DNA of 64,000 bases from a virus (Duplodnaviria; Caudoviricetes), in the IMG/VR virus record IMGVR_UViG_3300037067_022020, positions 1 through 64,000 of that record; one strand, 5' to 3'. Position 1 is the first letter of the stretch; each line of letters starts with the position of its first letter. Below, in pieces: positions 8,226 to 44,068 of the stretch. The notes beneath the pieces are model-generated. The model ran no database searches. It saw only the letters and a program-made list of their open reading frames with translations, and was not told the origin of the DNA. The translations under genes and the position numbers were made by a program.

Positions 8226-8227
8226 AA

Positions 8228-8304
8228 TCAAGTTTTAGGCTGTTTCTTGAAAAAACAGTGATAATTAACAAATTAACAATTTAAATATTAAAAAAGGAGT
8301 TATT
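8228..8304 (+). promoter_or_regulatory. putative translational operator of the SSB gene (H-type pseudoknot + AU-rich tract + SD)
   Basis: tcaag/cttga and ctgttt/aaacag interleaved; then aattaacaaattaacaatttaaa; ggag at 8296-8299. Confidence 0.5.
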
Positions 8305-18330: not shown

Positions 18331-18822
18331 ATGGAAACAAAAATTTTAAATCAAAATAGATATCGAATTTGGGATACAATCAATAAAAAAATGATAACTC
18401 CAGAAATGGCTGAGAATGATATGAGTAATATTATTGCCATAGGATTACATGGATTACCAATAGAGATAAATTCAGATTCAGTAAAAGATGGATTATTTAA
18501 AGCTTGGAATAGACATGATTTAATTTTATTAAAATCATTTGGATTTAATGATAAGACTGATAGAGAATTATTTGAAGAAGATTTAGTTATATATAAACCA
18601 TTGTCATATTCTATAACTACTCCTTATATAGTAAAATTTGGTTGGTATCAAATTCCAACTTACTATCAAAATAAGAAAGAGGAAATAAAAATTTGTGGAT
18701 GGTATTTATTACCCGATTTAGATGAGGCATATAAATATAATTATGTGGAATCATTTACTGAATCTTCCGCAAATCGCTGTGAAAAAATTGGCAACACATT
18801 TGAAACAGAAATAGTAAAATGA
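18331..18822 (+). CDS. YopX-family protein
   Basis: YRIWD..KKM, FG.NDK.DRELFEEDLV, EKIGNTFE. Confidence 0.8.
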   Translation: METKILNQNRYRIWDTINKKMITPEMAENDMSNIIAIGLHGLPIEINSDSVKDGLFKAWNRHDLILLKSFGFNDKTDRELFEEDLVIYKPLSYSITTPYIVKFGWYQIPTYYQNKKEEIKICGWYLLPDLDEAYKYNYVESFTESSANRCEKIGNTFETEIVK

Positions 18823-20439: not shown

Positions 20440-20525
20440 TTAAAAAATAACATAAAATTTCTGAAACTGTCACGGAAATTTATTATATTTTATTTTAATT
20501 GACAGGAAATTTAAATTTTAAAAAC

Positions 20526-20735
20526 ATGGCAAAACAACCAATCGAATCAGTTGCATTAACTGAATTATTTACAAAAATGAATGAACAGTGGGATCTTTTT
20601 ATGATTAATCACGCTGATCTAGCAAAGGGAAATAAATCCGCTGCAAAGAAAGCCCGTGCTGCTTTAGGAGAAATTAAGAAACTGGTAACTCCATATAGAA
20701 AAGAATCAGTCATAGCAGTCAAAGGCCAAAAGTAA
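20526..20735 (+). CDS. histone H1-like (Hc1-type) small basic protein
   Basis: KGNKSAAKKARAALGEIKKLVTPYRKESV; ATG at 20526. Confidence 0.8.
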   Translation: MAKQPIESVALTELFTKMNEQWDLFMINHADLAKGNKSAAKKARAALGEIKKLVTPYRKESVIAVKGQK

Positions 20736-20870: not shown

Positions 20871-21359
20871 ATGCAAACATCAATTATTAAAAAAACCTAT
20901 CGTTCTGAAACAGCTCATCGAGTGCTAAATGCTGTATCTTCAAGATGTAAATATAATATTCATGGTCACTCATATTTATGGGAAATAAATATTGAAGGAA
21001 CAATTAATCAAGAAACCGGAATGGTGTTGGATTTTAAAGAATTGCAACCAATTAAAGATTTCATTGATAAATTTGATCATGCTATGGTTCTTTGGGAAAA
21101 AGAAGATGATGAAATAAAACAATTTTATCTAAAGCATTATTCTCGAATTATAATCATGAAACAAAATTGTACAGCAGAAAATATGGCTAAGGTAGTTTAT
21201 AAATTCGTCTCCGACTGGTTACAAAAAATTAACAACATAAGATATACTAATTTTTATTGTACTCAAGTCGACGTTTGGGAAACTACTACTGGTTGTGGGG
21301 TTGCTGTTGATTATGATGAAAATGATGTTTTAATTTATTTACATGACGATGATAAATAA
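20871..21359 (+). CDS. queD: 6-carboxytetrahydropterin synthase
   Basis: ETAHR...C...IHGHSY, GMVLDF..L, FDHA, TAENMA, VWET. Confidence 0.93.
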   Translation: MQTSIIKKTYRSETAHRVLNAVSSRCKYNIHGHSYLWEINIEGTINQETGMVLDFKELQPIKDFIDKFDHAMVLWEKEDDEIKQFYLKHYSRIIIMKQNCTAENMAKVVYKFVSDWLQKINNIRYTNFYCTQVDVWETTTGCGVAVDYDENDVLIYLHDDDK

Positions 21360-21406: not shown

Positions 21407-22054
21407 ATGGAGAAAAAAGAAGAATTAATTCAATCAAATGGAAATATTGTACTCTCTGAAAAGCAAAGGGATGAAATGAAACTAAAAGCTGAAATTGCTT
21501 ATGGTCAATTTCTTGATGCCTTACGATTTGATTGGAAGAATGATGTTCAAATGAAAGAAACTCCAATGAGGGTTGCTAAAATGTATGTTGATGAATTATT
21601 TAGGGGCTGCTATACAAACATTCCCGATTTGAAAGAATTTGACAATGAAGGAGGATATGATGGAATGGTATTCAGTGGTGGAATCGATTTATTTTCAACT
21701 TGTGCACATCATTCAGTCGTATTTTTTGGGAAAGCATATATTGGATATCTTCCATCACCCATTGGAAAAGTAGTTGGATTAAGCAAATTAAATAGAATTG
21801 TTGATTTTTACAGCCGAAGGCCAGAAATTCAGGAATCGCTTACGATGCAGATTCATTCTCATCTTAATAAAGTATTAACAGGAAATTTTGGCGTAGCAGT
21901 ATTACTTGAAGCGGCTCATATGTGTGTTCGAAGTAGAGGTGTTAAACAAAATAGTACCATGATCACTAGTAAATTAAGTGGGGGATTTCTCGATCCTGAT
22001 GGGGCTTCAAGAAAAGAATTTTATGATAATATACAATATACAAAAAATCAATAA
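21407..22054 (+). CDS. folE: GTP cyclohydrolase I
   Basis: ETPMRVAKMY, STCAHH, VVGLSKLNRIV....RRP.IQE.LT, H.C...RGV. Confidence 0.96.
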   Translation: MEKKEELIQSNGNIVLSEKQRDEMKLKAEIAYGQFLDALRFDWKNDVQMKETPMRVAKMYVDELFRGCYTNIPDLKEFDNEGGYDGMVFSGGIDLFSTCAHHSVVFFGKAYIGYLPSPIGKVVGLSKLNRIVDFYSRRPEIQESLTMQIHSHLNKVLTGNFGVAVLLEAAHMCVRSRGVKQNSTMITSKLSGGFLDPDGASRKEFYDNIQYTKNQ

Positions 22055-24741
22055 TGTATAAATCAATTTTTTTCGATAAAAAAACTTCTACAATACATTT
22101 ATGGGATGATATTAAAGGATATCATAAATTTCCATTTCAAAAATATGCATATAAAAAAGATTCAACTGGATCTTTTTCTTCTTTATTTGGGCATAAATTA
22201 AAAAAAGTAACTTCTTGGGATAAAACTGACATTGAAGACGAATTAATGTTTGAAAGTGATGTAAATCCAGAAATGAGAACATTAATAGATATGTATCGAG
22301 ACGATGATACCATATCAAAAAATGTCAAAATTATGTTTACTGATATTGAAGTAAATGGAGAAAATGGATATAGTGAAGCAATTAATGCTGAAAATGAAAT
22401 TACAGCTATTTCTATTTATAATAAATTAGACGGGCAAAAACATATTTTTGTAGTTAATCCTTCATCTAATCTAATTTCAATAAAAAGAAATTATAAAATT
22501 CATGAAGTCCAAACTGAAAAGGAGTTACTAAAAAACTTTTTGACTATATATAAAACTATAATTCCTGACATTTTATCTGGGTGGAATAGTAATAATTATG
22601 ATATTCCTTATTTATGTAATAGAATTAAATCCCAAATTGGATCTAAATTTTTGGCAATATTAAGTCCTATTGGAATTGTAGAAAAAGATGATTGGGGGGA
22701 ATATACAATTGCTGGAGTTTCCTTACTTGACTTAATGACACTATATAAACAATTTACATATAATGAAGAACCATCTTATTCATTGGAAGCTATATGTAGA
22801 AAAGAACTTGGTAGAGGAAAAATCGAATATGATGGAAACTTAGATAATTTATATAAATATGATATAAATAAATTTTGTGAATATAATATTGAAGATGTAG
22901 AGTTATTAATAGCATTGGATTTAAAATTAGATCATATTACATTAGCGAGATCTATTTGTCATAAAGGTCATGTTCCATATGAAGATATTTCCTTTGTTAG
23001 CTCATATCTAGATGGGGCATCATTAACTTATTTAAAAAATATAGAAGTAATTGCTCCAAATCGACCAAAAGTAAATAAATTAAAATTTTCAGAAGTTCAA
23101 TTAAAAGGTAGTAAAAAGGTATATATTTCAAATAAAATTCCGTCTGAGACACCAAAATCTGGAGTGTTATTGATTAGAAGATCCAAAACTGCATATATTA
23201 AAGTAGAATATTCAAAATTTTCTGATGATGTTTTTTATTTAATTGATCCATTACCAATTGATTGCTTACCAATTTTTGAAATTTCGGTTAGTTTACCGGG
23301 TGCGTATGTAAAAGATCCTCTTGTTGGATTACATGATTGGGTATTTGATTTAGATTTAACATCATTGTATCCTTCGATTATTATGACGTTAAATATTTCC
23401 CCAGAAACAAAAATTGGATCAGTATTAAATTGGGATGAAAATAAATTTATTAAAAATGAATATGAACAGTTAATCATTCAATCCAAACATCAAAAAACTA
23501 CTTTTTCATTATCTGAATTTAATCAATTTTTAAAAGAGAAAAATTATTCAATATCTTCATCAGGAATAATATATAATTTAAATCATAGAGGATTTATTCC
23601 AACTATTCTCGAAACATGGTTTAATGAAAGAGATGAATTTAAAAATAAAATGAAAAGATATGGCAATGAAAAGAATGAAGAAATGTATAAGTTTTATCAT
23701 TCTCGGCAGCTTACTATGAAAGTTTTATTAAATTCATTTTATGGTGTAATGGCATTAGCTAGATTTCGATTTTATGATCTTGAAAATGCTGTGAGTGTGA
23801 CCTCAACCGGTCAGAGTATTATTAAATTTTCTGGAAAAGTTGCTAACCAATATTATAATAAGCAATTAAATGATAATTTAGATCATGTTATTGCTGTTGA
23901 TACTGACAGTATCTTTTCATCTGCTTTGCCAATTGTTCAAAAAAGATACCCAAAACTAGATTTTGATGACAATGATAAAATGATTCCTAAAGTGTTAGAG
24001 GTTGCTACAGAAGTTCAAAACTATATTAATAAATCTTATGATTTATATGCGTTAAAGTTACATAATTGTAAAGAACACAAATTAAAAATTAAACAAGAAA
24101 ATATATCAAGAACAGGATTATTTATTGCTAAAAAACGATATGCCCTTTGGCAAATATTTGCAGAGGGGGTCTCATCGGATAAATTGGAGGTAAAAGGAAT
24201 TGATGTTGTAAGATCAGATTTTCCTAAAGCATTTAAAATATTTATGTCAGATGTATTAAAAGATTTATTACATAAAATGAATAAAGATGATTATACTAAT
24301 AAATTATGTGATTTCAAAGATTCATTAAATGAAATAGATATAAAAGATATTATGATAACGAAATCAGTAAAAAAACTTTCTGATTATGATCATGAATCCC
24401 GCGAAAAATTTAATTATTTTCTTGGAACACCGGGTCATGTTAAAGCAGCATTATCATATAATGATTTTTTGAATCAAACAAAAAATAAATCTGCAAGACG
24501 TATTTCTAATGGAATGAAAATTAAATTTGCATATTTACGAAAAAATCCATATAATTTAGAGAGTATTGCAATGATGGGATTCGAGGATCCCCCCGATGTT
24601 ATTAAGTTTATTAATGATTATATTGATCGAGATAAAATTTTTGATTCTATATTAGCTAATAAGTTACAATCTTTTTACGATGCGTTAGGTTGGGGGGCAG
24701 TAATTGTTAATAGAGTAGTTGGGACCTTTTTTAATTTTTAA
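22054..24741 (+). CDS. family B DNA polymerase (T4 gp43-like) with ~70-aa insertion
   Basis: Exo DIE, GWNS..YDIPY, YNIEDV; Pol DLTSLYPSII, KVLLNSFYG, DTDS, KKRY. Confidence 0.96.
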   Translation: MYKSIFFDKKTSTIHLWDDIKGYHKFPFQKYAYKKDSTGSFSSLFGHKLKKVTSWDKTDIEDELMFESDVNPEMRTLIDMYRDDDTISKNVKIMFTDIEVNGENGYSEAINAENEITAISIYNKLDGQKHIFVVNPSSNLISIKRNYKIHEVQTEKELLKNFLTIYKTIIPDILSGWNSNNYDIPYLCNRIKSQIGSKFLAILSPIGIVEKDDWGEYTIAGVSLLDLMTLYKQFTYNEEPSYSLEAICRKELGRGKIEYDGNLDNLYKYDINKFCEYNIEDVELLIALDLKLDHITLARSICHKGHVPYEDISFVSSYLDGASLTYLKNIEVIAPNRPKVNKLKFSEVQLKGSKKVYISNKIPSETPKSGVLLIRRSKTAYIKVEYSKFSDDVFYLIDPLPIDCLPIFEISVSLPGAYVKDPLVGLHDWVFDLDLTSLYPSIIMTLNISPETKIGSVLNWDENKFIKNEYEQLIIQSKHQKTTFSLSEFNQFLKEKNYSISSSGIIYNLNHRGFIPTILETWFNERDEFKNKMKRYGNEKNEEMYKFYHSRQLTMKVLLNSFYGVMALARFRFYDLENAVSVTSTGQSIIKFSGKVANQYYNKQLNDNLDHVIAVDTDSIFSSALPIVQKRYPKLDFDDNDKMIPKVLEVATEVQNYINKSYDLYALKLHNCKEHKLKIKQENISRTGLFIAKKRYALWQIFAEGVSSDKLEVKGIDVVRSDFPKAFKIFMSDVLKDLLHKMNKDDYTNKLCDFKDSLNEIDIKDIMITKSVKKLSDYDHESREKFNYFLGTPGHVKAALSYNDFLNQTKNKSARRISNGMKIKFAYLRKNPYNLESIAMMGFEDPPDVIKFINDYIDRDKIFDSILANKLQSFYDALGWGAVIVNRVVGTFFNF

Positions 24742-24804: not shown

Positions 24805-25125
24805 ATGAAAAAATCAGAATTAGTGCAACTTATTAAAGAAGTTATTTCAGAAACTAATAAATATTATCATGTTTTTTGGACAGATGATAATGATGATGAA
24901 ATTCAAGTAATTGATAACAATGCTTTAGTTAAGGCCAATTCAGTTTCAGAAGCAAAAGCTTTAATAAAATCGAAATGTTTTACAGATAAAACATCTATAT
25001 ATAAATTTCAAAATGTTGAAGTGGCAAAACCAGAGGATGAACAATTTGCTGAATATTTTAAGTCTAAAAAAATAATGAATGCTTTAAATTCTAGAGGTTA
25101 TTATATTTATGATTCTGGATCTTAA
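24805..25125 (+). CDS. hypothetical protein with KKSELVQLIKE leader
   Basis: aggag SD; MKKSELVQLIKEVISE. Confidence 0.65.
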   Translation: MKKSELVQLIKEVISETNKYYHVFWTDDNDDEIQVIDNNALVKANSVSEAKALIKSKCFTDKTSIYKFQNVEVAKPEDEQFAEYFKSKKIMNALNSRGYYIYDSGS

Positions 25126-25195
25126 CTTGAAAAAAAAAGAATTAATTAAAATCATTTTTGATTATCTGAATAAAAATTCTTATATTTTAGTTACA

Positions 25196-25302
25196 ATTAA
25201 TCGTTTTTGACCCGATAAACGTTATAAATACTCGGTACTGGAGTCAATTCTGCTACTCAGTAAAACACCGCAGATTAATGTTAAAACATTAATATATTTT
25301 TT
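25196..25302 (+). ncRNA. candidate structured 5' leader of the MIPS operon
   Basis: nested stems attaatc/gattaat, gttt/aaac, cggt/accg, act-g-gagt/actc-agt; competing hairpin attaatgt/acattaat before the ATG. Confidence 0.35.
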
Positions 25303-26448
25303 ATGAATACAAAAATTAAAGTCGCCATTATTGGTGTTGGCAATTGTGCCAAATCTTTGATACAAGGTGTTGATCTTTATAAAAGAGGAAAATTAAATAC
25401 CAATGAAGGTATTATGCGGTCTGATATCGGTGGGTATACACCAAAAGATATTGAATTTGTCTTAGCTTTTGATGTAGATGGAAGAAAAGTTGGAAAGCAT
25501 TTACATGACGCAATTTATGAATTACCAAATTGTGCTATTGATTTAGTTAAACGGGAAGATATGATTCCTATAAAAATTATAGTACAGAAGGCACCAGTTA
25601 TGGATGGTGTTGCACCACATATGCGGACAACCGATATTAATGATCCCGAAAGATTTTATATTGATGATACACAAAAAGAAGTAGATATAATTCAATGTCT
25701 AAAAGACACTGCCCCCGATATTCTTATTAACTATTGTCCAGTTGGTTCTCAACAAGCGGTTGAATTTTATGCACAATGTGCCATCGAAGCAAATGTTGCT
25801 TTTTTAAATTGTATGCCAATTTTTATTGCGTCTGATCCTATTTGGGAGAAAAAGTTTATTGATGCTGGATTACCATTAATTGGGGATGATATGAAATCTC
25901 AATTTGGTGCGAGTATAGTTTCTCAAATTTTGCAAGAATTGGCTTTTTCGAGAGGGCATAAAGTAAAATGTCATATTCAAGAAAATGTCGGAGGAAATAC
26001 CGATTTTCATAATATGAAAGATCAAACTCGGTTAACAACTAAAAAGATTTCAAAAGAAAATGTTATCAGATCACAAAATACAATTAGAGGAATTGATCCA
26101 AAAGATTCATTTTTATATGCGGGGCCATCTAATTATATTCGTTATTATGGTGATAATAAAATCGCGAATTTTCATTTAGAACTTGAAGGATTTGGTGGGT
26201 CTCCAGTTATATTTGATGCAAGAATGTCAGTTCAGGATTCTCCAAATTCTGCAGGCGTTGTTATTGATGCTATTAGATATTTAAAAGTAGCTAAAGAACT
26301 TGGAATAGTTGGAGCATTAAGAGGACCGTCAGCTTGGACTCAAAAATCACCACCATTACAAATGCAGGGAGAACATGCTCAACATGAATGTGATGCATTA
26401 GCTAATAGATGCTTAACCGAAATTACCAGGAATCAATTAAAGAAATAA
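25303..26448 (+). CDS. ino1: myo-inositol-1-phosphate synthase
   Basis: VAIIGVGNCA.SL.QG, IGDD.KSQ.GA, N.GGNTDF.NM, KK.SK, DSPNSAGVVIDA.R. Confidence 0.95.
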   Translation: MNTKIKVAIIGVGNCAKSLIQGVDLYKRGKLNTNEGIMRSDIGGYTPKDIEFVLAFDVDGRKVGKHLHDAIYELPNCAIDLVKREDMIPIKIIVQKAPVMDGVAPHMRTTDINDPERFYIDDTQKEVDIIQCLKDTAPDILINYCPVGSQQAVEFYAQCAIEANVAFLNCMPIFIASDPIWEKKFIDAGLPLIGDDMKSQFGASIVSQILQELAFSRGHKVKCHIQENVGGNTDFHNMKDQTRLTTKKISKENVIRSQNTIRGIDPKDSFLYAGPSNYIRYYGDNKIANFHLELEGFGGSPVIFDARMSVQDSPNSAGVVIDAIRYLKVAKELGIVGALRGPSAWTQKSPPLQMQGEHAQHECDALANRCLTEITRNQLKK

Positions 26449-26451
26449 TAT

Positions 26452-26814
26452 ATGAATGGATTCGATTTTGATGGAGTTATTTCATTAGGAATATACCCAG
26501 GTCCAGAAGATATTATTATTACGGGTAGAAGCTTTGAAGAACAAGCTGAAACAATTAGTTTTATAAGATCGAAAAATATTCAAAACATTATTTATTTTAA
26601 TCCACAGCCATTTTCAAAAAAGTCACGAAAATCAAGTGGAATTTATAAAGCTAAAAAGATCAAAGAACTTGGCATAACTAGATTTTTTGAAGATGACCCA
26701 GTTCAAATAAAAGAAATATTAAAAATTAACCCGGATCTAGAAATAATATATATCAAACATAATTTAGAGCCAAAAGAAAATGTTAGACGAAATTCAAAAA
26801 ACGAAATAGTATGA
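26452..26814 (+). CDS. minimal capless HAD-superfamily phosphatase
   Basis: FDFDGVI (motif I), ITGR (II), K (III), FFEDD (IV). Confidence 0.85.
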   Translation: MNGFDFDGVISLGIYPGPEDIIITGRSFEEQAETISFIRSKNIQNIIYFNPQPFSKKSRKSSGIYKAKKIKELGITRFFEDDPVQIKEILKINPDLEIIYIKHNLEPKENVRRNSKNEIV

Positions 26815-27641
26815 AAAACATAATTATTCTTTATTCAGGTGGTTTAGACAGTTATATTCTTTATCAATATGCAAAAAAGAATTATCCCAATGATAATATT
26901 AAAGCAATTTATTGGAATTATTATCAAGATGTTGCAAAGATAGAAATATCAAAACTTCCAAACTTTGTCGAAATTAGAAATTTAGATTGGATGAATCTAA
27001 AAGGAAAAACATCAATAGAATGCCCCGGAAGAAATGAAGGTCCAATCTTCATCCCTGGTAGAAATTTAGTATTTGCTGTATTATGTGCTTGTGAAGACCT
27101 ACCAGATGAAATTTGGTTGGGGACATTGGCTGGAGAAACACATAACAAAGGAACTGATAAAAATTATCAATTTCTTTGGAATATGAATGCCACATTAAAT
27201 TATGTACTTGGACCATTTTTGGGTGAAAAGAAAATCGAATGTAAATTCCCATTAGCTGATGCTGGAATGAATAAATTAGATTGTGTAAACTGGGCATTAA
27301 ATAATGGAATAACAAAAGAAGAATTAATCTCAACATATTCATGTCATTCTGGAAAAGATATTCCTTGTGGAGAATGTGTACAGTGTATTAAAAGATGGTC
27401 AATTTTTGGCCAAAATGGATTTACAGAAAAATATAATGTTAATCCAGCTACTACAAAACAAGGATTATTAATGTTCGAAGAGATGATAAGATGTAAACTT
27501 GGAGGTGATAACCCATATTATAATCAGGAATCTATACAAGAAATTTTACCATTCTTTATGCAATACGCATTAAAAAATCAGCATCTATTCGATGCTAAAT
27601 TAATTAATAATATAGTCATGGTAAAAAATTTAAAAAATTAA
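26811..27641 (+). CDS. queC: QueC-family ATP pyrophosphatase (7-cyano-7-deazaguanine synthase-like, divergent)
   Basis: YSGGLDS PP-loop, IPGRN, PL....K, SCH....CGECVQC..R zinc site. Confidence 0.85.
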   Translation: MKNIIILYSGGLDSYILYQYAKKNYPNDNIKAIYWNYYQDVAKIEISKLPNFVEIRNLDWMNLKGKTSIECPGRNEGPIFIPGRNLVFAVLCACEDLPDEIWLGTLAGETHNKGTDKNYQFLWNMNATLNYVLGPFLGEKKIECKFPLADAGMNKLDCVNWALNNGITKEELISTYSCHSGKDIPCGECVQCIKRWSIFGQNGFTEKYNVNPATTKQGLLMFEEMIRCKLGGDNPYYNQESIQEILPFFMQYALKNQHLFDAKLINNIVMVKNLKN

Positions 27642-27642
27642 C

Positions 27643-28836
27643 ATGGAAAAAAAATCATTCTTGTATATTCCTTCCTTTTCAGTTGGATATTTTGCGACAT
27701 TATTAGCTAAAAATTATTACTTAACTAACAACTTACCAGCCAGATTTTATGCAGACGATTTCCCCAAATTATTCAGACATAATTCTTTTTTATTAACTGC
27801 CGGGCATTTTTATAAAAAAATGAATACGTTTGACAGTTTTGGATTTGATCGAAAGAAACATTTAGTATTGGGGGATTCCGGGGGATATCAAATTGCATCT
27901 GGTGCTCTAACTTGGTCGAATGATTTAAGATATAAAATTTTTAATTGGTTGGAAAATAATTCGACAGTAGCAATGAATCTAGACATTCCACCCAGAATGA
28001 ATAATATTGGAAAATGGGATGAATGTATAGCTCAAAGCGAAGAAAATTTTAAATATTTTTATGAGAAACAAACAGGAAAAACAGAGTTTCTAAATGTTTT
28101 ACAAGGAACCAATGAAACATCTTATAAGATTTGGTATGATAGAATGAAAAAATTTGAATTTTCTGGGTGGGCAATAGGTGGGGCAGGAGGAATATTATAT
28201 CGTTTAATTAGTTCTATCGCAGTATTATTAGATGGAAAAGAACATTTAAAAACATCTAATAAATACTTACATATGTTAGGATCTTCCAGTTTAAGCGAAT
28301 TTTTTATTCTAGCTCAGCTACAAAAATCATTAAACGATATTGGAAGCAGTTTACAAGTAATGACTGATAGTTCATCCCCATCTTTTTCAGTTGCATTTGG
28401 AACATATTATACCGCAGCTAATTTGAAAAAATGTGTATATTCTACTGTCAATGTCCCAAAACAAAAACAACATTCAATTGACAATAATATGTTTTTACCA
28501 AAGACACATTATTTTGATGCTTTATTTAATAATGTATTAACTCCACAAGATATATTTGACTATAAAGAAAAATGTATTTGTGTAATGACGTTACATAATT
28601 TTTTCGTTCTTAAAGATACAATTACGGCGATTAATGAATTCATTTATAATGATCCATATTTACTACAAGAGGTTACAGACCCGAATCTTTTTATTGTATT
28701 AAAATCAATTGATGAAATGGTAAAAAATGATAATTCAATGAAAGTATTTGAAAAATATAAACCAGCTTATGTTAATGCAAGTAAGTTATTTGATTCATCT
28801 GATGACACTCATATTAATACATTTTTTGAATTTTAG
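27643..28836 (+). CDS. TGT-fold guanine transglycosylase (DpdA-like)
   Basis: GDSGGYQ, MNLDIPP, VLQG, GWAIGG, HMLG, DSSS, LHN. Confidence 0.85.
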   Translation: MEKKSFLYIPSFSVGYFATLLAKNYYLTNNLPARFYADDFPKLFRHNSFLLTAGHFYKKMNTFDSFGFDRKKHLVLGDSGGYQIASGALTWSNDLRYKIFNWLENNSTVAMNLDIPPRMNNIGKWDECIAQSEENFKYFYEKQTGKTEFLNVLQGTNETSYKIWYDRMKKFEFSGWAIGGAGGILYRLISSIAVLLDGKEHLKTSNKYLHMLGSSSLSEFFILAQLQKSLNDIGSSLQVMTDSSSPSFSVAFGTYYTAANLKKCVYSTVNVPKQKQHSIDNNMFLPKTHYFDALFNNVLTPQDIFDYKEKCICVMTLHNFFVLKDTITAINEFIYNDPYLLQEVTDPNLFIVLKSIDEMVKNDNSMKVFEKYKPAYVNASKLFDSSDDTHINTFFEF

Positions 28837-28878
28837 AAAAAAATTTTTTATATTATATACATATTAAATTCACTAAAC

Positions 28879-29589
28879 ATGGATAAAACAAAGTTAACAA
28901 AATTTATTGATAAATATCATCTTGGTGGTAATGTCGAATCTATTAAAATAGAAATAAAAGACAACAGTTTAAAAACAGGATTTTCAACCGAAGATAGAAC
29001 TTTAATTGGAAAAGTAGTTGTTAAAGATTTTAAATTCGAAGATAGTGAATTTGGAATTTTTGCGACATCTGAATTATCAAAAATTTTAGGCGCATTGGAA
29101 TCTGAAATTTCGATGGGGATAAATAAGGTTGATGATAAACCAGTTAATTTAAAAATAGAAGATAGCATTTTAAAAACTATTTTTGTATTAGCCGACCCCG
29201 AAATTATATCTACAAAAGCAGGTTCAATAAAACAACTTCCAGAATTTGATGCTGAATTGAAAATTGATTCGACATTTATTACAACATATTTAAAATCATT
29301 CTCGGCTATTCAAGCTAATAATGTAGCTATTAAAGCAGATAATACTGATGTTACATTTATTATTGGATTTAGTGATATTAATACTAATAGAATTTCATTT
29401 AAATCTCCGGGAACTATCAAAAAAACATTTAGTCCAATTTCATTTAGTTCTGAATATTTTAAACAGATATTAGTAGCTAATAAAGATTGTTCAGCTGGAA
29501 AATTATCTATTAGTCAACAAGGATTATTGAAGTTTCAATTTAAAGAAGGAGATTTTAGTTCAGAATATTTTTTAGTTAAATTAGTTTAA
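28879..29589 (+). CDS. sliding clamp (gp45/PCNA-like)
   Basis: size, EFGIF...L, LADP.II, terminal SEYFLV; directly upstream of the clamp loader. Confidence 0.8.
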   Translation: MDKTKLTKFIDKYHLGGNVESIKIEIKDNSLKTGFSTEDRTLIGKVVVKDFKFEDSEFGIFATSELSKILGALESEISMGINKVDDKPVNLKIEDSILKTIFVLADPEIISTKAGSIKQLPEFDAELKIDSTFITTYLKSFSAIQANNVAIKADNTDVTFIIGFSDINTNRISFKSPGTIKKTFSPISFSSEYFKQILVANKDCSAGKLSISQQGLLKFQFKEGDFSSEYFLVKLV

Positions 29590-31008: not shown

Positions 31009-31791
31009 ATGAACAACAGATTTGAAAAATTAAATTTAAATAAAATTCAGCCAATTGTAGAAGTATGTGTATGTATCCAGGGAGAAGGTCAGAATGCGGG
31101 GATTCCTCATTTTTTGGTTCGCACATCGGGATGTAATTTAAATTGTCAATATTCTAATTCGATTTGTGATACTGCTTATGCATCATGGAATCCAGAAAAA
31201 GGAAGTAAAACTTATCAAGATATTATTGATATAATTAAATTAAATCCACAAATTAATCATGCATTTGTTACTGGTGGTGAACCAACCATTTATAAAGAAC
31301 TGCTTGTTGATATATTAACAATTTTTAAAAATTATAATATTGTAACTGCAATCGAATCAAATGGAAGTATATTCATTCCTGGATTAGAGGATTTATTGGA
31401 TTTAGTAACTATTTCCCCCAAATTAAAAAATTCAGTTCCCAAACTTGGAACATTTGCTAAAAGTAAATGGATAGATAAAATTGTAACTCAAATTGAAATT
31501 GATAAACATGAAAAGAATAGATCTAATTATGATCAAATGAAGTTATGGACTAATTATCATGATGTTCAATTTAAATTTGTTGTTAGTAGTAAATCAGATT
31601 TAGACGAAATAAAACAAATACAAAAGATATTAGATCTTCCACAGCATCTTATATACTTAATGCCTGAAGGAGATTTAAATGATAAACTTCAAGAAAAAAG
31701 AAAAATGGTTATTGAAATATGTATTAAAGAAGGATATAATTATTCTGATCGCCTACATATTTTAACTTATGGTGAAAAACGCGGTGTATAA
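31009..31791 (+). CDS. queE: 7-carboxy-7-deazaguanine synthase (radical SAM)
   Basis: IQGEG..AG.P...VR.SGCNLNC......CDT, TGGEP, ESNG, TISPKL, KFVV, LMPEG, RLH. Confidence 0.93.
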   Translation: MNNRFEKLNLNKIQPIVEVCVCIQGEGQNAGIPHFLVRTSGCNLNCQYSNSICDTAYASWNPEKGSKTYQDIIDIIKLNPQINHAFVTGGEPTIYKELLVDILTIFKNYNIVTAIESNGSIFIPGLEDLLDLVTISPKLKNSVPKLGTFAKSKWIDKIVTQIEIDKHEKNRSNYDQMKLWTNYHDVQFKFVVSSKSDLDEIKQIQKILDLPQHLIYLMPEGDLNDKLQEKRKMVIEICIKEGYNYSDRLHILTYGEKRGV

Positions 31792-32950: not shown

Positions 32951-33352
32951 ATGAAACAAATCACAAAACCATTAGAAGACAAAATTATTGTAAAAAGAAT
33001 TGAAAATCCTGAAGCAACAGCTAACGGTGTAATTTTACCAGATATTGCCCAAGAAAATGCAGTTATGGGTAAAGTTATTGCAGTTGGTCCTGGTCGTTTA
33101 ACTTTTGATGGGAAAAGAATTCCCAATGAATGTCATGTTGGAGATACAGTTTATTATCTTAAATTTGAAGCATATAAAATTGATGTGGATGGCGAAGAAG
33201 TAACAGTTGTTCGTGAAGCAAATGTTTTAGCTCGAAATTGTAATGACGATGAAGGAAAGTCCACTGATATTGAGAACCAACTAATAAACTTAATGTGTAA
33301 AGAATCTATTGGTGAGGAATCCATTGAGGACCCAATTTATCCAAATATTTAA
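32951..33352 (+). CDS. groES: co-chaperonin GroES with acidic C-terminal extension
   Basis: KPLEDKIIVK, TANGVILPD, GKVIAVGPGR, VGDTV, RE.NVLA. Confidence 0.92.
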   Translation: MKQITKPLEDKIIVKRIENPEATANGVILPDIAQENAVMGKVIAVGPGRLTFDGKRIPNECHVGDTVYYLKFEAYKIDVDGEEVTVVREANVLARNCNDDEGKSTDIENQLINLMCKESIGEESIEDPIYPNI

Positions 33353-33363
33353 TAAATTTTATA

Positions 33364-33795
33364 ATGAAAATCGCGTTTGATTTTGACGGAACGTTGGAGT
33401 TCTTAGAACTTCAAGAACTTGCAAGAGAATTAAAAGAACGAGGGCATGACGTACAAATTGTAACAACTCGTTATGATGAGGAGAATAAATGCAAATATCC
33501 TTTTTATAAAAACATGAAACAAAAACAACGCGATGAATTACATAATGATTTGTATGAGGTTGCAAAAAAATTAAATATTCCATATAATTTTACTAATTAT
33601 GTTCTTAAAGCTCAATTTTTAATCGATAATAATTTTGATATATTAATCGATGACAATTCAGAAGAAGGTGATTTATTAAATTCACTATCCAATAAAATAA
33701 AATTTTATGATTGTTATTATTCATTCGATAAAATGAAAAACGAATTATTAACACTAAATATAACAGATAAAAACAATGAAGAACAAACAAATTAA
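33364..33795 (+). CDS. HAD-superfamily hydrolase
   Basis: IAFDFDGTL, IVTTR, K, LIDDN. Confidence 0.85.
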   Translation: MKIAFDFDGTLEFLELQELARELKERGHDVQIVTTRYDEENKCKYPFYKNMKQKQRDELHNDLYEVAKKLNIPYNFTNYVLKAQFLIDNNFDILIDDNSEEGDLLNSLSNKIKFYDCYYSFDKMKNELLTLNITDKNNEEQTN

Positions 33796-35437
33796 ACTTA
33801 ACACTGAGGCTCGCTCCTCATTACTAAAAGGAATTGAAATCCTTTCAAAATCAGTTGGTATCACATTGGGACCAGCTGGTCGCAATGTAGTAATCGAAAC
33901 AGAATATGAAATGCCATATTCAACTAAAGATGGTGTTACAGTAGCTAAAGCAATTAAATTAAAAGATTCTTTTGAAAATACTGGAGCACAATTAGTAAAA
34001 GAAGCAGCAATCCAAACAAATGATTCTGTTGGCGACGGAACTACAACGGCAGTTATTCTTGCCCATGAAATTATTTCTGAAGGATTAAAGACGCTTACTA
34101 ATGGTGTTAATGCTATAGAATTAAAAAGAGGTATTGAAAAAGCAACAAAGTATGTAGTTTCAGAACTCGAAAAACAAAGTATTAATGTTACTAATAATAA
34201 AGAATTAAATCAAATTGCTACTATTTCAGCTAATGGTGATGAAGAAATTGGAAAAATAATTGCTGAAGCTATGGATGAAGTTGGGAAAGATGGTGTTATA
34301 ATGATCGAAGATGCTAAAACATCTGAAACAATTTTGGAAATTGTTGAAGGCATGCAATTTGATAGGGGATATCTTTCTCCTTATTTTATTAATAATAATC
34401 AAACTATGCAATGTGAATTAGAAAATCCATATATTCTAATTTATGATAGAAAACTCAATAATTTAAAAGGAATAACAAAAGTTTTGGATCAAATTATTAA
34501 AACTGATACTCCACTATTTGTTATTGCAGAAGATGTTGAAGGTGAAGCCTTAGCAGTATTAGTAGTAAATAAAGTTAGGGGAACGATGAAAGTTGCTGCA
34601 ACAAAAGCTCCAGAATTTGGTGATAGAAGAAAAGAAATTCTTGAAGATATTGCTGTATTAACTGGTGGGACTGTTATTTCAGCTGATAAAGGTCTTTCAT
34701 TAGAAAAACTTACTATTGATCAACTTGGACGAGCAAGAATGGTTACTATAACTGGAAAGAAAACAACTATTGTTGATGGCAAAGGAGATGAAAATAAAAT
34801 TCTTGACCGTGCCGAAGAAATTAAGAAACAGATTGAATTAGCTACATCTGATTATGATAAAGAAAAATATCAAGCAAGATTAGCAAGATTTTCTGGCGGA
34901 GTTGCTGTAATTCAAATTGGAGCAGAATCTGAATTAGAAATGAAAGATAAAAAATATAGAGCAGAAGATGCTCTTCATGCAGTCAGAGCCGCAGTTGAAA
35001 AAGGAATTCTTCCTGGTGGTGGTATTGTGTTAATGAATATATTTAATTATTTTGACGATAATAAAGAAATGATTCTTGAATATAATTCAATTCCTAAAAT
35101 TGAAAAAAGAGGTTTTGAAATACTTATGGAAGCAATTAAAGCTCCATTTAGGTTAATAATTGAAAATTCAGGAAAAAATGCTGAAGCTATTTTTGAAACT
35201 ATTAAATTTGAAAGGAAAATGCAAGATAGTCAAAATATTGGATTTGACGCCAAAAGATTAATCATATGTAATCTTATTAAAGAAGGAATTATTGATCCAA
35301 CTAAAGTAACTATTACAGCATTACAAAAAGCAGCAAGTGTAGCAGGAATGATTTTAACCACCGAATCAGTGATTTGTAACGAAGAAGAAAAAGAAAAACA
35401 ATTTATTCCACAGCAATATGAAAATCAGGGGTATTGA
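33776..35437 (+). CDS. groEL: chaperonin GroEL
   Basis: TLGPAGRNV, TKDGVTVA, GDGTTTA, GMQFDRGYLSPYF, GIIDPTKV. Confidence 0.98.
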   Translation: MKNKQIKLNTEARSSLLKGIEILSKSVGITLGPAGRNVVIETEYEMPYSTKDGVTVAKAIKLKDSFENTGAQLVKEAAIQTNDSVGDGTTTAVILAHEIISEGLKTLTNGVNAIELKRGIEKATKYVVSELEKQSINVTNNKELNQIATISANGDEEIGKIIAEAMDEVGKDGVIMIEDAKTSETILEIVEGMQFDRGYLSPYFINNNQTMQCELENPYILIYDRKLNNLKGITKVLDQIIKTDTPLFVIAEDVEGEALAVLVVNKVRGTMKVAATKAPEFGDRRKEILEDIAVLTGGTVISADKGLSLEKLTIDQLGRARMVTITGKKTTIVDGKGDENKILDRAEEIKKQIELATSDYDKEKYQARLARFSGGVAVIQIGAESELEMKDKKYRAEDALHAVRAAVEKGILPGGGIVLMNIFNYFDDNKEMILEYNSIPKIEKRGFEILMEAIKAPFRLIIENSGKNAEAIFETIKFERKMQDSQNIGFDAKRLIICNLIKEGIIDPTKVTITALQKAASVAGMILTTESVICNEEEKEKQFIPQQYENQGY

Positions 35438-37587: not shown

Positions 37588-38016
37588 ATGAAATTTAGAA
37601 TTGGTATAACTGGATCAGACCAATATCCAACTAAAATCAAAATCAAAAATATTATCTTCAATTTAAAAAAACAATTTGGAGATGAATTAGTTATTTATTC
37701 TCGTGGATCATTGAAAGGAGTTGATTTATATGTTAAAAAATTTTCTATAGAATTTGGAATCGATTATGCTGAATTTACTCCCAGTTATCATTCAAAAACA
37801 TTATATTCAGTTAATAAAAATGAATATTATTATAACAAACCATATTCAGGAAGAGATATTTATAAAAGGAGTCTTCAAATGATAAAACAGTGTCATGCTT
37901 TTATATTATTTAAATATGAGGACGATAAAGTTATAGATTATATGATTACCCAAATAACTAAATCAAACAAAAAATTTAAATTAATTGAAAAACATGAAGC
38001 AATTAGAGTTAGGTGA
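37588..38016 (+). CDS. SLOG/YspA-like Rossmannoid protein
   Basis: IGITGS...G...GVD..V...E.G..Y.EF.P. Confidence 0.6.
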   Translation: MKFRIGITGSDQYPTKIKIKNIIFNLKKQFGDELVIYSRGSLKGVDLYVKKFSIEFGIDYAEFTPSYHSKTLYSVNKNEYYYNKPYSGRDIYKRSLQMIKQCHAFILFKYEDDKVIDYMITQITKSNKKFKLIEKHEAIRVR

Positions 38017-39508
38017 AATTAGAAACGGATTTCCTGTTTTAGAAAAAAAGGATAGAGAGACATTACTATTATTAGCTGATGATATACAATTTCATTCCGG
38101 AGTTGCGACAATTGCAAGACAAGTAGTATTAGGAACTTGTCATTATTTTAATTGGGTACAACTTGGTGGAGCTATGAAACACCCACATGAAGGAAAAAAA
38201 GTTAATATTGATATTGCTGTAGCAAATGAAATAGGTTTAAAAGATCCATCCGTTGAAATATTTTGTATTTCTGGTTATGGATCCCCTCATTTAGTTAGAG
38301 ATATTTTACATTCTTACGACATTTCTGCGATTTTTCATATTACAGATCCAAGATTTTGGAATTGGTTATATTCAATGAGAGCCGAACTCGAAACAATATG
38401 TCCAGTAATATATCTTGATCTTTGGGATTGCCCCCCCGTTCCTGCTTGGAATGAACCCTTCTACAGGAGTTCAGATTTGCTTTTAAATATAAATAGACAA
38501 ACTCATCAATTTGTAAAGACATTATTAAAAGATAATGTATTTGATTTATATAAATCAGATTATAATAATTCATTACAACAACTCCCGAAACTTATTGACT
38601 ATGTTCCACATGGACAAGATGAAAATACTTTTTTCAAAATTAATAAAACTGATGAAAAAGTAGTTAACTTAAAAAAGGAAATTTTTAATGATAAAGCTGA
38701 TGATATAAAATTTATTTGTTTTTATAATAACAGAAATATTCGTAGAAAAATGCTAATCGATTTAATCATTGCCTATAGAGATTTTTGTTTAGATGATGAA
38801 AAAAAGATTAATTCGACCGCATTAATTTTACATACAGATGCTAAGGATGAAAATGGAACTGATTTATCAGTTGTTATAAATGATCTTGCGAATGAATTAA
38901 ATATTATAATTATTGAAAAGAAAATATCTCCACAAGAGATGAATGTATTATATAATCTTTCAGATGTAACGATTAATATTGGTTCAAATGAAGGATTTGG
39001 GTTATCATCATTAGAATCTATTATGACTGAGACAATGATAATTAATAATACAACAGGTGGACTTCAAGACCAGATGCGATTTGAAGATGAAAATGGAAGG
39101 TGGATAGAATTCACTGAGGAGTTTCCTACTAATCATAATGGAAGATACAAAAAATGTGGTGAATGGGCTATTCCCATATTCCCAAAAACAAGAAGCATAC
39201 AGGGATCAATCCCTACTCCCTATATATTCGACGATCGTTGTGATTGGGAAGATGTGTCAAAAGCAATATTAAAAGTTTATGAAATGTCTCAAGAAGAAAG
39301 AGAAATTCGAGGAAAAAAAGGAAGAGAGTGGGTTCTTAGTAAAGAATCAAGAATGTCGACAACAGAAATGAGCCATCATATAATAATGGATATTAATTTA
39401 TTGCTGGAAAAATGGATTCCGACTCGTACGATTGAAATGATAAATGTGAATAAAGAATTAGAAAAAAAGAAAACTATTAACATGGGGATTTTAAAATCAG
39501 AATTATAA
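37994..39508 (+). CDS. GT-B (GT4-like) glycosyltransferase
   Basis: SGVAT, NNRNIRRK, YNLSDVTIN...NEGFGLSSLES...TGGLQDQ. Confidence 0.88.
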   Translation: MKQLELGEIRNGFPVLEKKDRETLLLLADDIQFHSGVATIARQVVLGTCHYFNWVQLGGAMKHPHEGKKVNIDIAVANEIGLKDPSVEIFCISGYGSPHLVRDILHSYDISAIFHITDPRFWNWLYSMRAELETICPVIYLDLWDCPPVPAWNEPFYRSSDLLLNINRQTHQFVKTLLKDNVFDLYKSDYNNSLQQLPKLIDYVPHGQDENTFFKINKTDEKVVNLKKEIFNDKADDIKFICFYNNRNIRRKMLIDLIIAYRDFCLDDEKKINSTALILHTDAKDENGTDLSVVINDLANELNIIIIEKKISPQEMNVLYNLSDVTINIGSNEGFGLSSLESIMTETMIINNTTGGLQDQMRFEDENGRWIEFTEEFPTNHNGRYKKCGEWAIPIFPKTRSIQGSIPTPYIFDDRCDWEDVSKAILKVYEMSQEEREIRGKKGREWVLSKESRMSTTEMSHHIIMDINLLLEKWIPTRTIEMINVNKELEKKKTINMGILKSEL

Positions 39509-40867: not shown

Positions 40868-42259
40868 ATGAATAAAAAAACATGCATCTTTCAAGCACCC
40901 ATAGATACATTCTCGGGATATGGAAACCATTCTCGAGATTTGTGTAAATCATTATTCAAGATCCTTCCAGAATCAGAATATGAAATCGTAATAATTCCAA
41001 CAATGTGGGGGAATACTGCTTGGGGAGCATTAAATAAAAATAAACCAGATGAATTACAAATATTAACTCATTTTATTAAAGAACCACAAGTTAAGCAACA
41101 ACCTGATTTATTTATTCAAATAACCATCCCATCAGAATTTCAACCAATAGGAAAGTATTCGATTGGTATTACCGCTGGAACTGAAACAAGTCTTGCTTCA
41201 ATTGAATTTGTTACCGGATGTGACCAAATGGATCTTAATATTGTACCATCACAATTTACTAAACAGGTATTAGGGAGTACTCGTTGGACTAAAAAAAATA
41301 CGCAAACAGGTCAAATAGAGGGTGAATTATTTTGTAAAAAACCTATTGAGGTTTTATTTGAAGGATTAAATACTGAAATTTATACGAAAACAACTGAAAT
41401 TAATCCTGTAATTAAATCTCTTTTAGATCCTATTCCGGAAGATTTTTTGTTTTTGACTGTGGGTCATTGGTTGAAAGGTGACCTTGGACAAGATAGAAAA
41501 GATATTGGGAATGTTATTAAAGTATTTTATGAAGTATTTAAGAATAGATCTAAACAACCTGGATTACTTTTGAAATTAGGAACAAATTGTGAAGTAGATA
41601 AAGACTTTACTTTAAAAAGAATCAAAGAAATAAAAAAATTATTTAATAAAAAAGATAATCTTCCCCAAGTATATTTATTAAATGGTAATCTTTTAGATGA
41701 TGAAATGAATAGTTTATATAATCATCCAAAGATTAAATCAATGGTAAGTTTTACTCATGGTGAAGGATTCGGGCGACCATTATTAGAATTTTCTGTAACT
41801 GGGAAACCTATATTAGTTTCTGATTGGAGTGGTCAAAAAGACTTTCTTCCAAATGGAAATGCTATTTTATTAAAAGGAAAATTAGAAAAAATTCATCCCT
41901 CTGCGGTCTGGGATACAATTTTAATAAAAGAATCAAGTTGGTTTAGAGTTGATTATGAATATGCTGGGGTGAAAATGGATTATGTTTATAATAATTTAGG
42001 AAAATGTATTGAGATGGGGAGAAAGCAAACCAACAATGCTAAAAATTTTACTTTGGAAAAAATGACCGAGAAATTTGAAAATATCATAAAAAATTATTAT
42101 ATTAATAAACAGATAGCGGAGACTGATTTATTTATCCCACAACTACCAAAATTAACTAAGTTAAATAAAACAATGGATCAACTAATTAATGAAAATGATG
42201 AGATTAAATCAAATATCGATATAACTAAGATAGAAGGATTTGAAGATGTAAAAATATAA
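40868..42259 (+). CDS. GT-B (GT4-like) glycosyltransferase
   Basis: SGYG.HSR, VGHW...DRKD, SFTHGEGFGRPLLEF..TGKPI..S.WSG..DF. Confidence 0.88.
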   Translation: MNKKTCIFQAPIDTFSGYGNHSRDLCKSLFKILPESEYEIVIIPTMWGNTAWGALNKNKPDELQILTHFIKEPQVKQQPDLFIQITIPSEFQPIGKYSIGITAGTETSLASIEFVTGCDQMDLNIVPSQFTKQVLGSTRWTKKNTQTGQIEGELFCKKPIEVLFEGLNTEIYTKTTEINPVIKSLLDPIPEDFLFLTVGHWLKGDLGQDRKDIGNVIKVFYEVFKNRSKQPGLLLKLGTNCEVDKDFTLKRIKEIKKLFNKKDNLPQVYLLNGNLLDDEMNSLYNHPKIKSMVSFTHGEGFGRPLLEFSVTGKPILVSDWSGQKDFLPNGNAILLKGKLEKIHPSAVWDTILIKESSWFRVDYEYAGVKMDYVYNNLGKCIEMGRKQTNNAKNFTLEKMTEKFENIIKNYYINKQIAETDLFIPQLPKLTKLNKTMDQLINENDEIKSNIDITKIEGFEDVKI

Positions 42260-43432: not shown

Positions 43433-44068
43433 ATGAAAACAATATCTTATGCAATTACTGTATGTGACGAGCACGTCGAGCTAGAAATGCTATTAGGTCA
43501 ACTTAACATTTCAATAGCAAATAAGGAACAATGTGAAGTTATTATTTTAAAAGATATAGGGAAAACATCCGAACATATTACAAGAGTTATTAATAAATAT
43601 GTAGATAAATTACCGATTAAAGTTTTTGAAAGAAAATTTGATAATGACTTTTCCGAACATAAAAATTTTTTATTTTCAAATTGTACAAAAGATTATATTT
43701 TTAATATCGACGCCGATGAAATTCCAAGCTCGATTTTAATTAAACAACTTCAAGCACAATTAGAATTAAATAATTATCCAGATTTAATGTTAGTTGCGAG
43801 AATTAATATAGTAAAAGGATTAACTCAACAATTATTAAAAAAATGGAATTGGCATATTGATGATAAAGGAATGATAAATTTTCCAGATTGGCAGGGGAGA
43901 ATCATAAGAAATTCTCCCGATATTAAATGGATTGGAAAAGTACATGAAAGAATTGATGGGGCAAAAATTGTGAAATATCTTCCACAAGATGAAAAAATGG
44001 CTTTTCTTCATGTAAAGGAAATAGCACGACAAATTCAGCAAAATAATTTTTATGAAACTTTAATATAG
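43433..44068 (+). CDS. GT2 glycosyltransferase
   Basis: ISYAITVCDE, DFSEHKN, YIFNIDADE, PD.Q.R, W.GKVHE. Confidence 0.88.
   Translation: MKTISYAITVCDEHVELEMLLGQLNISIANKEQCEVIILKDIGKTSEHITRVINKYVDKLPIKVFERKFDNDFSEHKNFLFSNCTKDYIFNIDADEIPSSILIKQLQAQLELNNYPDLMLVARINIVKGLTQQLLKKWNWHIDDKGMINFPDWQGRIIRNSPDIKWIGKVHERIDGAKIVKYLPQDEKMAFLHVKEIARQIQQNNFYETLI

Follow-up and report, generated by a model that had tools for sequence, protein, structure and literature searches.

An inositol synthase cassette proposed to tailor 7-deazaguanine bases in the DNA of T4-like phages

Why would a phage encode inositol synthesis beside the genes with which it makes deazaguanines? This question is raised by a four-gene cassette in an uncultured T4-like phage (~27% GC), known from a 153-kb IMG/VR virus record (IMGVR_UViG_3300037067_022020) of which the first 64 kb, referred to below as the window, were analyzed. 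On the plus strand, the cassette encodes an inositol-3-phosphate synthase of the MIPS/Ino1 type (MIPS; 25303..26448), a minimal capless HAD-type phosphatase of 120 residues (26452..26814), a QueC-like PP-loop ATP-pyrophosphatase (26811..27641) and a base transglycosylase with the fold of tRNA-guanine transglycosylase (TGT) and DpdA (27643..28836). The answer that we favour, with moderate confidence, is that the cassette does the tailoring in a 7-deazaguanine DNA-modification pathway of the phage, in which myo-inositol would be captured by ATP-activated 7-carboxy-7-deazaguanine (CDG) and the product would reside in phage DNA.

The arrangement of the locus is the starting point. An initial annotation of this DNA had described the four genes as tightly packed, and the open reading frame map agrees with it exactly: MIPS and the HAD gene are separated by 3 nt, the HAD and QueC-like genes overlap by 4 nt (ATGA), and 1 nt separates the QueC-like and TGT-like genes. 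A terminator scan of the window found no plus-strand terminator-like site between the four genes. The cassette lies, as also described, between the DNA polymerase and the sliding clamp, with deazaguanine precursor genes on both sides. The T4 gp43-like family B DNA polymerase (PolB; 22054..24741; PF00136 and PF03104) ends at 24741 and the clamp (28879..29589; phrog_223, E 3.5e-7) starts at 28879. Upstream lie QueD (6-carboxytetrahydropterin synthase; 20871..21359; PF01242, E 3e-20) and FolE (GTP cyclohydrolase I; 21407..22054; PF01227, E 4e-46), and downstream lies QueE (radical SAM 7-carboxy-7-deazaguanine synthase; 31009..31791; phrog_2076, E 5e-43; TIGR03963/TIGR03365), with clamp loader subunits between the clamp and QueE. 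All of these genes are on the plus strand. The absence of QueF and of a CDP-alcohol phosphotransferase, noted earlier for the window, extends to the whole 153-kb record. No gene of the HMUDK_hel, ADDT, HMUD2 or ThyA families was found in the record either; thus the deazaguanine set is the sole base-modification system detectable in this incomplete record.

What do the four proteins do? The first matches PF01658 (75 bits; cut-off 27), phrog_33138 (E 2e-156) and, over its full length, TIGR03450 (336 bits, below the equivalog cut-off of 638). It aligns end to end with Ino1 of Mycobacterium tuberculosis (1GR0; residues 2-361, 313 bits, E 3e-92), and scores only 164 bits against Ari2 (6K96), a synthase of five-membered cyclitols. 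The Gly-rich NAD-binding loop expected at the N-terminus and the Lys/Asp blocks of the family (GVGNCA, GDDMKSQ, NVGGNTDF, SKKISKEN, DSPNSAG and KSPP) are present and are conserved in 25 viral homologues; the catalytic role of the blocks is presumed to be that of their counterparts in yeast and archaeal MIPS. By sequence, the protein is a bacterial-type inositol-3-phosphate synthase, predicted to convert glucose-6-phosphate to inositol-3-phosphate. The second protein has no match in Pfam or NCBIfam and was recognized by no curated family profile, its only hit being phrog_415 (E 1e-4). Its HAD motifs (D5-x-D7-G-V, T24-G-R-S27, K57/K66 and E80-D81-D82) are nevertheless invariant or nearly so in 20 homologues. 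A HAD of this type follows MIPS at 73 of 80 viral MIPS loci, and on these sequence grounds it is classed as a minimal capless HAD phosphatase and as the constant partner of phage MIPS.

A sequence search of the PDB returned nothing significant for the QueC-like or TGT-like proteins, so fold searches were needed for both. The AlphaFold2 model of the QueC-like protein (pLDDT 94) was matched best by Foldseek to QueC of Bacillus subtilis and E. carotovora (3BL5, 2PG3) and then to Cap9 (9NTO). The PP-loop SGGLDS is present, the RN motif and a conserved Lys are kept, and none of the four zinc-site cysteines (C178, C186, C189 and C192) varies; where the canonical site reads Cx8CxxCxxC, the window protein has a C-x7-C spacing. 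A helical extension of ~70 residues is found at the C-terminus. The protein departs from the canonical QueC signature (PMC13329287) in carrying YYQ-(x)5-E without the His and GTDKN in place of YPDC. Its scores are 54 bits against PF06508 and 55 bits against TIGR00364, for which the cut-off is 150. From its sequence it is therefore assigned to PF06508 and is not filed as a preQ0 synthase. Longer fused forms were not found among proteins of 484-2000 residues, which is weak evidence, and a complex prediction for the HAD and QueC-like proteins (proteins of annotated GenBank loci left out) scored 0.00, which bears neither way on binding.

The fourth protein belongs to a family in which D78-S-G-G-x-Q83 (DSGGxQ), D114, HxLG and D242 are invariant among 18 homologues. 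Its AlphaFold2 model (pLDDT 89, pTM 0.90) retrieved TGTs as all of the top 50 Foldseek matches (E ~3e-8, probability 1.0, TM ~0.5). The window protein has no Pfam match (PF01702), and a homologue on another contig, L007, reaches 23.7 bits, under the cut-off of 26.3. The cysteines of the TGT zinc site (CxCxxC...H) are not conserved across the family alignment. The modelled fold identifies the protein as a TGT/DpdA-fold base transglycosylase. Among deposited phages, tblastn relatives of this protein are confined to unannotated jumbo-phage proteins (Pseudomonas PA5oct group, P. putida phages, Sinorhizobium Phosso, and Xanthomonas/Erwinia phages) and Vibrio 'TGT domain' proteins.

Is the association of these genes more than an accident of one genome? 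The initial annotation had staked the idea on MIPS and HAD being linked to QueC and TGT in relatives. A neighbourhood survey bears this out: the MIPS-HAD-QueC linkage is seen again and again, at ~30 non-redundant loci that are deeply diverged, and it follows a single subclade of QueC-like proteins. Metagenomes supplied at least 160 relatives of the QueC-like protein. Six context look-ups among them gave MIPS-HAD-QueC four times, a phosphoribosyltransferase (PRTase)/kinase variant once and another cyclitol-type enzyme pair once; all four relatives sampled at 46-52% identity (metagenome assemblies) have MIPS-HAD-QueC. A scan of viral contigs with an alignment of the QueC-like family gave 79 loci, whose neighbours were scored by tblastn with the window proteins. 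Where QueC shares at least 37% identity with that of the window (~43 loci), MIPS lies directly upstream of it at 26; where QueC is more distant (~36 loci), at none. Altogether, MIPS is upstream of QueC on the same strand at 35 loci (~30 non-redundant), cultured Menderavirus phages among them, with a GC content of 27-54% and a PolB 24-49% identical to that of the window. Between MIPS and QueC these 35 loci have a median gap of 477 nt, which matches the HAD gene in size, and a small HAD is usually found in it. FolE and a TGT-like gene usually flank the trio, on either side.

A maximum-likelihood tree, quickly built from 75 QueC sequences, has a clade of 44 members that divides into subclades of 29 and 15. 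The first, which includes the window protein, has 27 MIPS-linked members, one linked to another cyclitol enzyme and one to neither. None of the 15 members of the sister subclade is MIPS-linked, and among the other 31 rows of the tree only a HAD::QueC fusion protein of contig L007 is. Two further QueC lineages with MIPS upstream are represented by L007/L099 and by L153/154. In the sister subclade (contigs L017, L021-L023, L025, L027-L029, L031, L032, L048 and L049), the slot of the HAD gene, at ~8200-9000, is occupied by a PRTase-like gene (with an APS-kinase-like gene nearby), an S-adenosylmethionine-dependent methyltransferase or an NT5C-type nucleotidase. These neighbours suggest other tailoring or nucleotide-level routes for deazaguanines.

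The full cassette is also present in cultured phages, namely Stenotrophomonas phages Moby, IME-SM1, Ps15, YB07 and others. In the Menderavirus phages of Stenotrophomonas the order is FolE-MIPS-HAD-QueC-TGT-QueE, with identities to the window proteins of 55% for MIPS, 47% for HAD, 43% for QueC and only 28% for PolB. The Menderavirus protein at the transglycosylase position has no tblastn match to the window TGT-like protein. The cassette moves as a block relative to PolB, following it in the window and in Moby and preceding it in L007, L016, L045 and L051.

One member of the MIPS-linked QueC subclade stands beside a different cyclase. In the 168-kb T4-like contig L018, the QueC-like protein is nested within the subclade as sister to a MIPS-linked member, and the MIPS-HAD slot holds a sugar-phosphate cyclase. 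The best PDB matches of this cyclase are 4P53 (275 bits) and then 5TPR, whereas true dehydroquinate synthases score ~118 bits. We take 4P53 to be ValA, a 2-epi-5-epi-valiolone synthase, i.e., a cyclase of the sedoheptulose-7-phosphate type. Cyclases of this kind free the phosphate on their own and yield a ketone, which fits what is found in L018: the HAD is absent and a Gfo/Idh/MocA oxidoreductase follows the cyclase. A LuxS-like gene accompanies the cyclase and the oxidoreductase ahead of the QueC-like gene (L018:4113-6653).

MIPS can also be used as the point of entry. An alignment of 25 viral MIPS sequences found relatives on at least 531 viral contigs, and the best 80 loci were inspected, 69 of them with an evaluable flank. 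A gene of the 5-hydroxymethyldeoxyuridine (5-hmdU) DNA-kinase family (PF18723) lies within 5 kb of MIPS at 64 of the 69 loci and QueC at four; the sole locus with neither is on a giant-virus contig. Because nearly all neighbours are of these kinds, MIPS-HAD appears tied to DNA-base hypermodification and, judged from gene neighbourhoods, travels in phages with hypermodification enzymes of two unrelated kinds. At loci of the kinase type the typical order is a GDSL-like gene, MIPS, HAD, an FkbM-type methyltransferase and the PF18723 kinase, then PolB. FkbM-type enzymes O-methylate ring hydroxyls, so that a methylated inositol is possible at these loci. The conserved block of GDSL/SGNH, MIPS, HAD, FkbM and PF18723 genes is very common, being found at L004:5730-10152 and at ~60 further loci among L101-L176, and upstream there is often a cytidylyltransferase-like protein of 624 residues together with one of 651 residues without an assigned family.

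Cultured phages carry the thymine-linked version as well. In Caulobacter phage Cr30, two genes closely precede MIPS, one for an amino-acid:DNA transferase (PF18724, E 1e-52) and the other TET-associated-glycosyltransferase-like; in Ralstonia phage RP13, it is 3 kb from an HMUD2 kinase. Anti-CBASS genes lie a few kb from the MIPS-HAD/thymidine-hypermodification genes of both phages: Acb3 (E 2e-68) and Acb1 (E 9e-15), at L002:13858-14658 in Cr30 and L003:10640-11230 in RP13. On giant-virus contigs of the nucleocytoplasmic large DNA virus type (L006, L008-L011 and L132), MIPS is 57-63% identical to the phage enzyme and its neighbours include TFIIB, a fatty-acid desaturase and GT7; tblastn found neither a window-type HAD nor a modification gene near it on these contigs. 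The likeness of the sequences suggests gene exchange between phages and eukaryotic viruses.

How could these enzymes work together? From their family membership, FolE, QueD and QueE would convert GTP to CDG, MIPS would convert glucose-6-phosphate to inositol-3-phosphate, and the small HAD would remove the phosphate to give free myo-inositol. The QueC-like enzyme, as expected of its family, would adenylate the carboxylate of CDG as QueC does. Gene context then points to a transfer in which the CDG acyl group would pass to a hydroxyl of myo-inositol rather than to ammonia, giving an inositol-conjugated deazaguanine, and the TGT/DpdA-fold enzyme would put the deazaguanine base into phage DNA in exchange for guanine. 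CDG may be inserted first and tailored on the DNA, or the QueC-like step may come first. In an alternative order, inositol phosphate would be ligated first and the phosphate removed afterwards from the conjugate or from the DNA; capless HADs often work on large substrates, which leaves this order open. Protection of the DNA against restriction enzymes and other nucleases would come from the bulk of the polyol. A similar logic may hold at loci of the kinase type, where a phosphate ester of the 5-hydroxymethyl group would be made with ATP and then captured by a nucleophile. Since the acyl-adenylate of a QueC-family enzyme and the phosphate ester of the kinase both need a nucleophile, MIPS-HAD could be the supply of inositol, and free myo-inositol as that nucleophile would be the simplest account that covers both contexts of MIPS-HAD. 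Each half of the chemistry has a precedent. The QueC-family proteins Cap9 and QatC use the N-terminus of a protein in place of ammonia to receive the CDG acyl group (PMC13329287), and a hydroxyl is captured on DNA in the O-serinylthymidine of phage ViI (PMC8989533).

How does the cassette compare with known systems? One parallel is the mycothiol pathway, in which Ino1, MshA, the MshA2 phosphatase, MshB and the ATP-dependent ligase MshC act in turn, the acceptor amine being on glucosamine and not on inositol. The likeness lies in a MIPS of the Ino1 type (the best match being mycobacterial), a phosphatase step and the ATP-dependent ligation of a carboxylate to an inositol-containing acceptor; the cassette, however, has no homologues of MshA, MshB or MshC, and its ligase is of another family. 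Phage deazaguanine DNA modification relies on FolE, QueD, QueE and QueC together with DpdA and gives dPreQ0, dADG (from 7-amido-7-deazaguanine, ADG), dG+, dPreQ1, dCDG, dDG and others (PMC6884629, PMC10516641). The window has in common with these systems the precursor genes, a QueC-family enzyme and a TGT-fold transglycosylase, all beside replication genes. Unlike them, it has an inositol-phosphate synthase and a HAD, which occur in no described pathway (known tailoring is by QueF, ArcS, Gat-QueC, DpdL, DpdM and DpdN), its QueC lacks YxQxHxxE/YPDC, and its transglycosylase is too diverged for the Pfam TGT family. Campylobacter phage CP220, in which a proposed ADG synthase (QueC*) and DpdA3 accompany complete replacement of G, is likewise a T4-like phage of low GC content with a divergent QueC (26% identity) and a very distant TGT homologue, but no MIPS or HAD occurs in Campylobacter phage records. 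By tblastn, the window TGT-like protein has no match in Campylobacter or Cellulophaga phages.

Cap9 of type IV CBASS and QatC (PMC11996544, PMC13329287) resemble the QueC-like enzyme in fold (9NTO being a top match), in acting on an ATP-activated CDG carboxylate and in using a nucleophile other than ammonia, and Cap9 has the same Y-x-Q-(x)5-E spacing. They differ in serving bacterial defence and in acylating a protein amine, whereas the window enzyme comes from a phage, ends in a helical extension at its C-terminus and is proposed to take a small polyol as acceptor. Thymidine hypermodification, by a 5-hmdU DNA kinase and an amino-acid:DNA transferase (ViI; PMC8989533), also joins an ATP-activated base substituent to nucleophiles that include a hydroxyl, and MIPS-HAD is found in such clusters at most viral MIPS loci. 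It differs in the base and in the activating enzyme, and none of its genes is in the record of the window. Full-text searches of the literature turned up no publication connecting inositol with hypermodification of either deazaguanine or thymidine in phages. Three features set the cassette apart from known phage deazaguanine systems, namely its inositol module, its non-canonical QueC and its highly diverged transglycosylase. Comparative genomics supports the deazaguanine-linked module well, and the inositol-bearing base is its predicted product.

Several points weigh against an inositol-bearing deazaguanine. The coupling between MIPS-HAD and the QueC-like enzyme is read from gene context, and the synteny of replication modules in T4-like phages inflates adjacency. 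A PP-loop enzyme that forms an ester would be unusual, as its relatives use amines. The closest QueC relatives of the window protein with fetched flanks include three without an adjacent TGT-like gene (L013, L019 and L020) and one with it (L014). The cyclase of L018 is a single case, as a search of viral contigs with this one query gave no second replacement of MIPS by a cyclase. A family of HAD::QueC fusion proteins (~390 residues, ~38 cluster representatives, including L007:3600-4769 and L099:10679-11890) lacks MIPS in all three further contexts (L177:6001-7173, L178:6001-7185 and L179:6001-7152), where it occurs with QueD, QueE and FolE. The record is ~70% complete, and it contains no aminotransferase. 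Finally, no residue signature separates the MIPS-linked QueC-like proteins from other phage QueC-like proteins. The inositol-linked deazaguanine put forward in the initial annotation is partly supported: the recurrent linkage, the tie of MIPS-HAD to base hypermodification and the precedent of Cap9 and QatC stand on one side, and the missing active-site signature on the other. Two candidate lines of evidence were rejected. The TDK motif and missing His were considered as an active-site signature of the MIPS-linked subclade and are common to MIPS-less clades. The HAD::QueC fusion was considered as a Rosetta stone for MIPS-QueC and was set aside for its MIPS-less contexts and because its HAD domain resembles that of the window only in motif I. 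In L013, the slot directly after QueC that holds the TGT-like gene in the window is occupied by a T4 endonuclease V-like pyrimidine-dimer glycosylase (PF03013; L013:7816-8277).

Could the QueC-like enzyme, whose non-canonical motifs occur in MIPS-less clades too, be an ordinary phage-type ADG or preQ0 synthase, as has been proposed for QueC* of CP220? The transglycosylase would then insert dADG, dPreQ0 or dCDG, and the inositol would go to another enzyme, for example one of the glycosyltransferases at 38-64 kb, for decoration of DNA or virion proteins. We regard this as unlikely, yet as an alternative to be reckoned with. The PP-loop, RN motif, Lys and zinc site are all kept, dADG is made in CP220-type phages by a QueC homologue together with a distant DpdA (PMC10516641), and the window holds GT61, GT47, GT2 and two weak GT-B genes as well as epimerases and methyltransferases. 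The placement of MIPS-HAD immediately upstream of QueC, often overlapping, at ~30 diverged loci within one QueC subclade speaks against it, and the glycan region was not seen adjoining the cassette in Menderavirus and most other carriers.

MIPS-HAD might instead be an auxiliary metabolic module, for host inositol, an osmolyte or lipid, that merely occupies variable slots in the replication and nucleotide-metabolism region of T4-like phages. The syntenic replication modules and the giant-virus contigs, with a close MIPS and no detected HAD or modification gene, agree with such co-location, and the description of Ps15 counts its MIPS as a stray bacterial gene and draws no connection with the surrounding queuosine genes (PMC9025141). 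It is nonetheless improbable in view of the 68 of 69 evaluable MIPS loci that have a base-hypermodification enzyme, of one or other of two unrelated kinds, no more than 5 kb away, the movement of the block as a unit relative to PolB, the translational coupling to QueC and the second cyclitol synthase in the same slot of L018.

A tRNA target, in which the TGT-fold enzyme would place a modified deazaguanine in phage or host tRNA, as an anticodon modification much like queuosine with a cyclitol instead of the cyclopentenediol, is quite improbable. All structural matches of the enzyme are TGTs and queuosine itself bears a carbocyclic diol; on the other hand, the family shows no conserved TGT zinc site, the gene lies among replisome genes, the parallel context of MIPS-HAD is DNA-specific (the 5-hmdU DNA kinase), and the phage TGT homologues characterized so far are all DNA transglycosylases (PMC6884629, PMC10516641). 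Very improbable, finally, is a different product of MIPS, either a cyclitol phosphate of another kind or, like that of Ari2, a five-membered carbocycle, such that the appended group would not be myo-inositol: the family does include Ari2 and the Ino1 equivalog score falls short, but M. tuberculosis Ino1 is a far better match to the protein than Ari2 is, and its GDDxKS, NVGGNxDF, SKKISK and DSPNS blocks are conserved across the 25 viral sequences.

The surroundings of the cassette were also described. The initial annotation had placed a recurring promoter-like motif on both sides of it. Both plus-strand sites are present, namely the sigma-70-like TTGATT-17-TATATT at 25158..25186, a candidate promoter upstream of MIPS that is not above chance, and TTGAAT-17-TATATT at 28826..28854, found before the clamp gene by motif scan. 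In this 27% GC DNA, sigma-70-like matches are not enriched in the window (32 found versus 37.7 expected from shuffles) and the shared 15-mer motif is mildly so (9 versus 3.9); the bracketing sites thus stand, with at most mild enrichment behind them. The T4 late-promoter sequence TATAAATA was rejected as a candidate: it has one copy at 25223, and its count in the window is 30 versus 26 expected. The interval between the polymerase and the cassette contains an open reading frame of 106 residues on the plus strand (24805..25125) without a family match. Just upstream of QueD, a gene at 20499-20735 encodes a histone-like protein of the chlamydial Hc1 type (PF07432, E 3e-9), and the window further encodes a YopX protein (18331-18822) and GroES and GroEL (32951-35437).

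A run of sugar-handling genes spans 37985-63599, has no obvious export parts, and could decorate DNA (perhaps its inositol) or virion proteins. Its glycosyltransferases are two weak GT-B genes (37985-39508 and 40868-42259), a GT2 (43433-44068), a GT61 (52485-53351) and a protein of 1145 residues that combines GT47 with a nucleotide-diphospho-sugar transferase (53406-56843). The run also includes a sugar C-methyltransferase (45042-46358), a radical SAM/SPASM protein (48972-49811), two NDP-sugar epimerases/dehydratases (56840-57727 and 59161-59997) and an FkbM methyltransferase (60215-60931).

What would the finding mean? The module is not rare, as at least 531 viral contigs carry a MIPS, which among the best 80 loci is nearly always beside base-modifying enzymes. 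The cultured phages with the full cassette make the proposal directly testable, as Cr30 and RP13 do for thymine. A wider idea, speculative and of rather low probability, is that cyclitol-bearing DNA bases form a widespread class, in which myo-inositol (or, in L018, perhaps a C7-cyclitol) would be the general nucleophile on CDG-adenylate and on phosphorylated 5-hydroxymethylpyrimidines, and in which the hydroxyl-rich inositol would here be a handle on 7-deazaguanine from which the glycosyltransferases at 38-64 kb build a glycan on the DNA. The enzymes of the cassette could become tools for site-specific derivatization of DNA. Inositol-bearing DNA would likely resist restriction and likely affect sequencing, cloning and nanopore base-calling. 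If the proposal is true, the QueC family would gain a new reaction with a polyol as acceptor, and DNA hypermodification a new chemical type, a cyclitol borne by a nucleobase.

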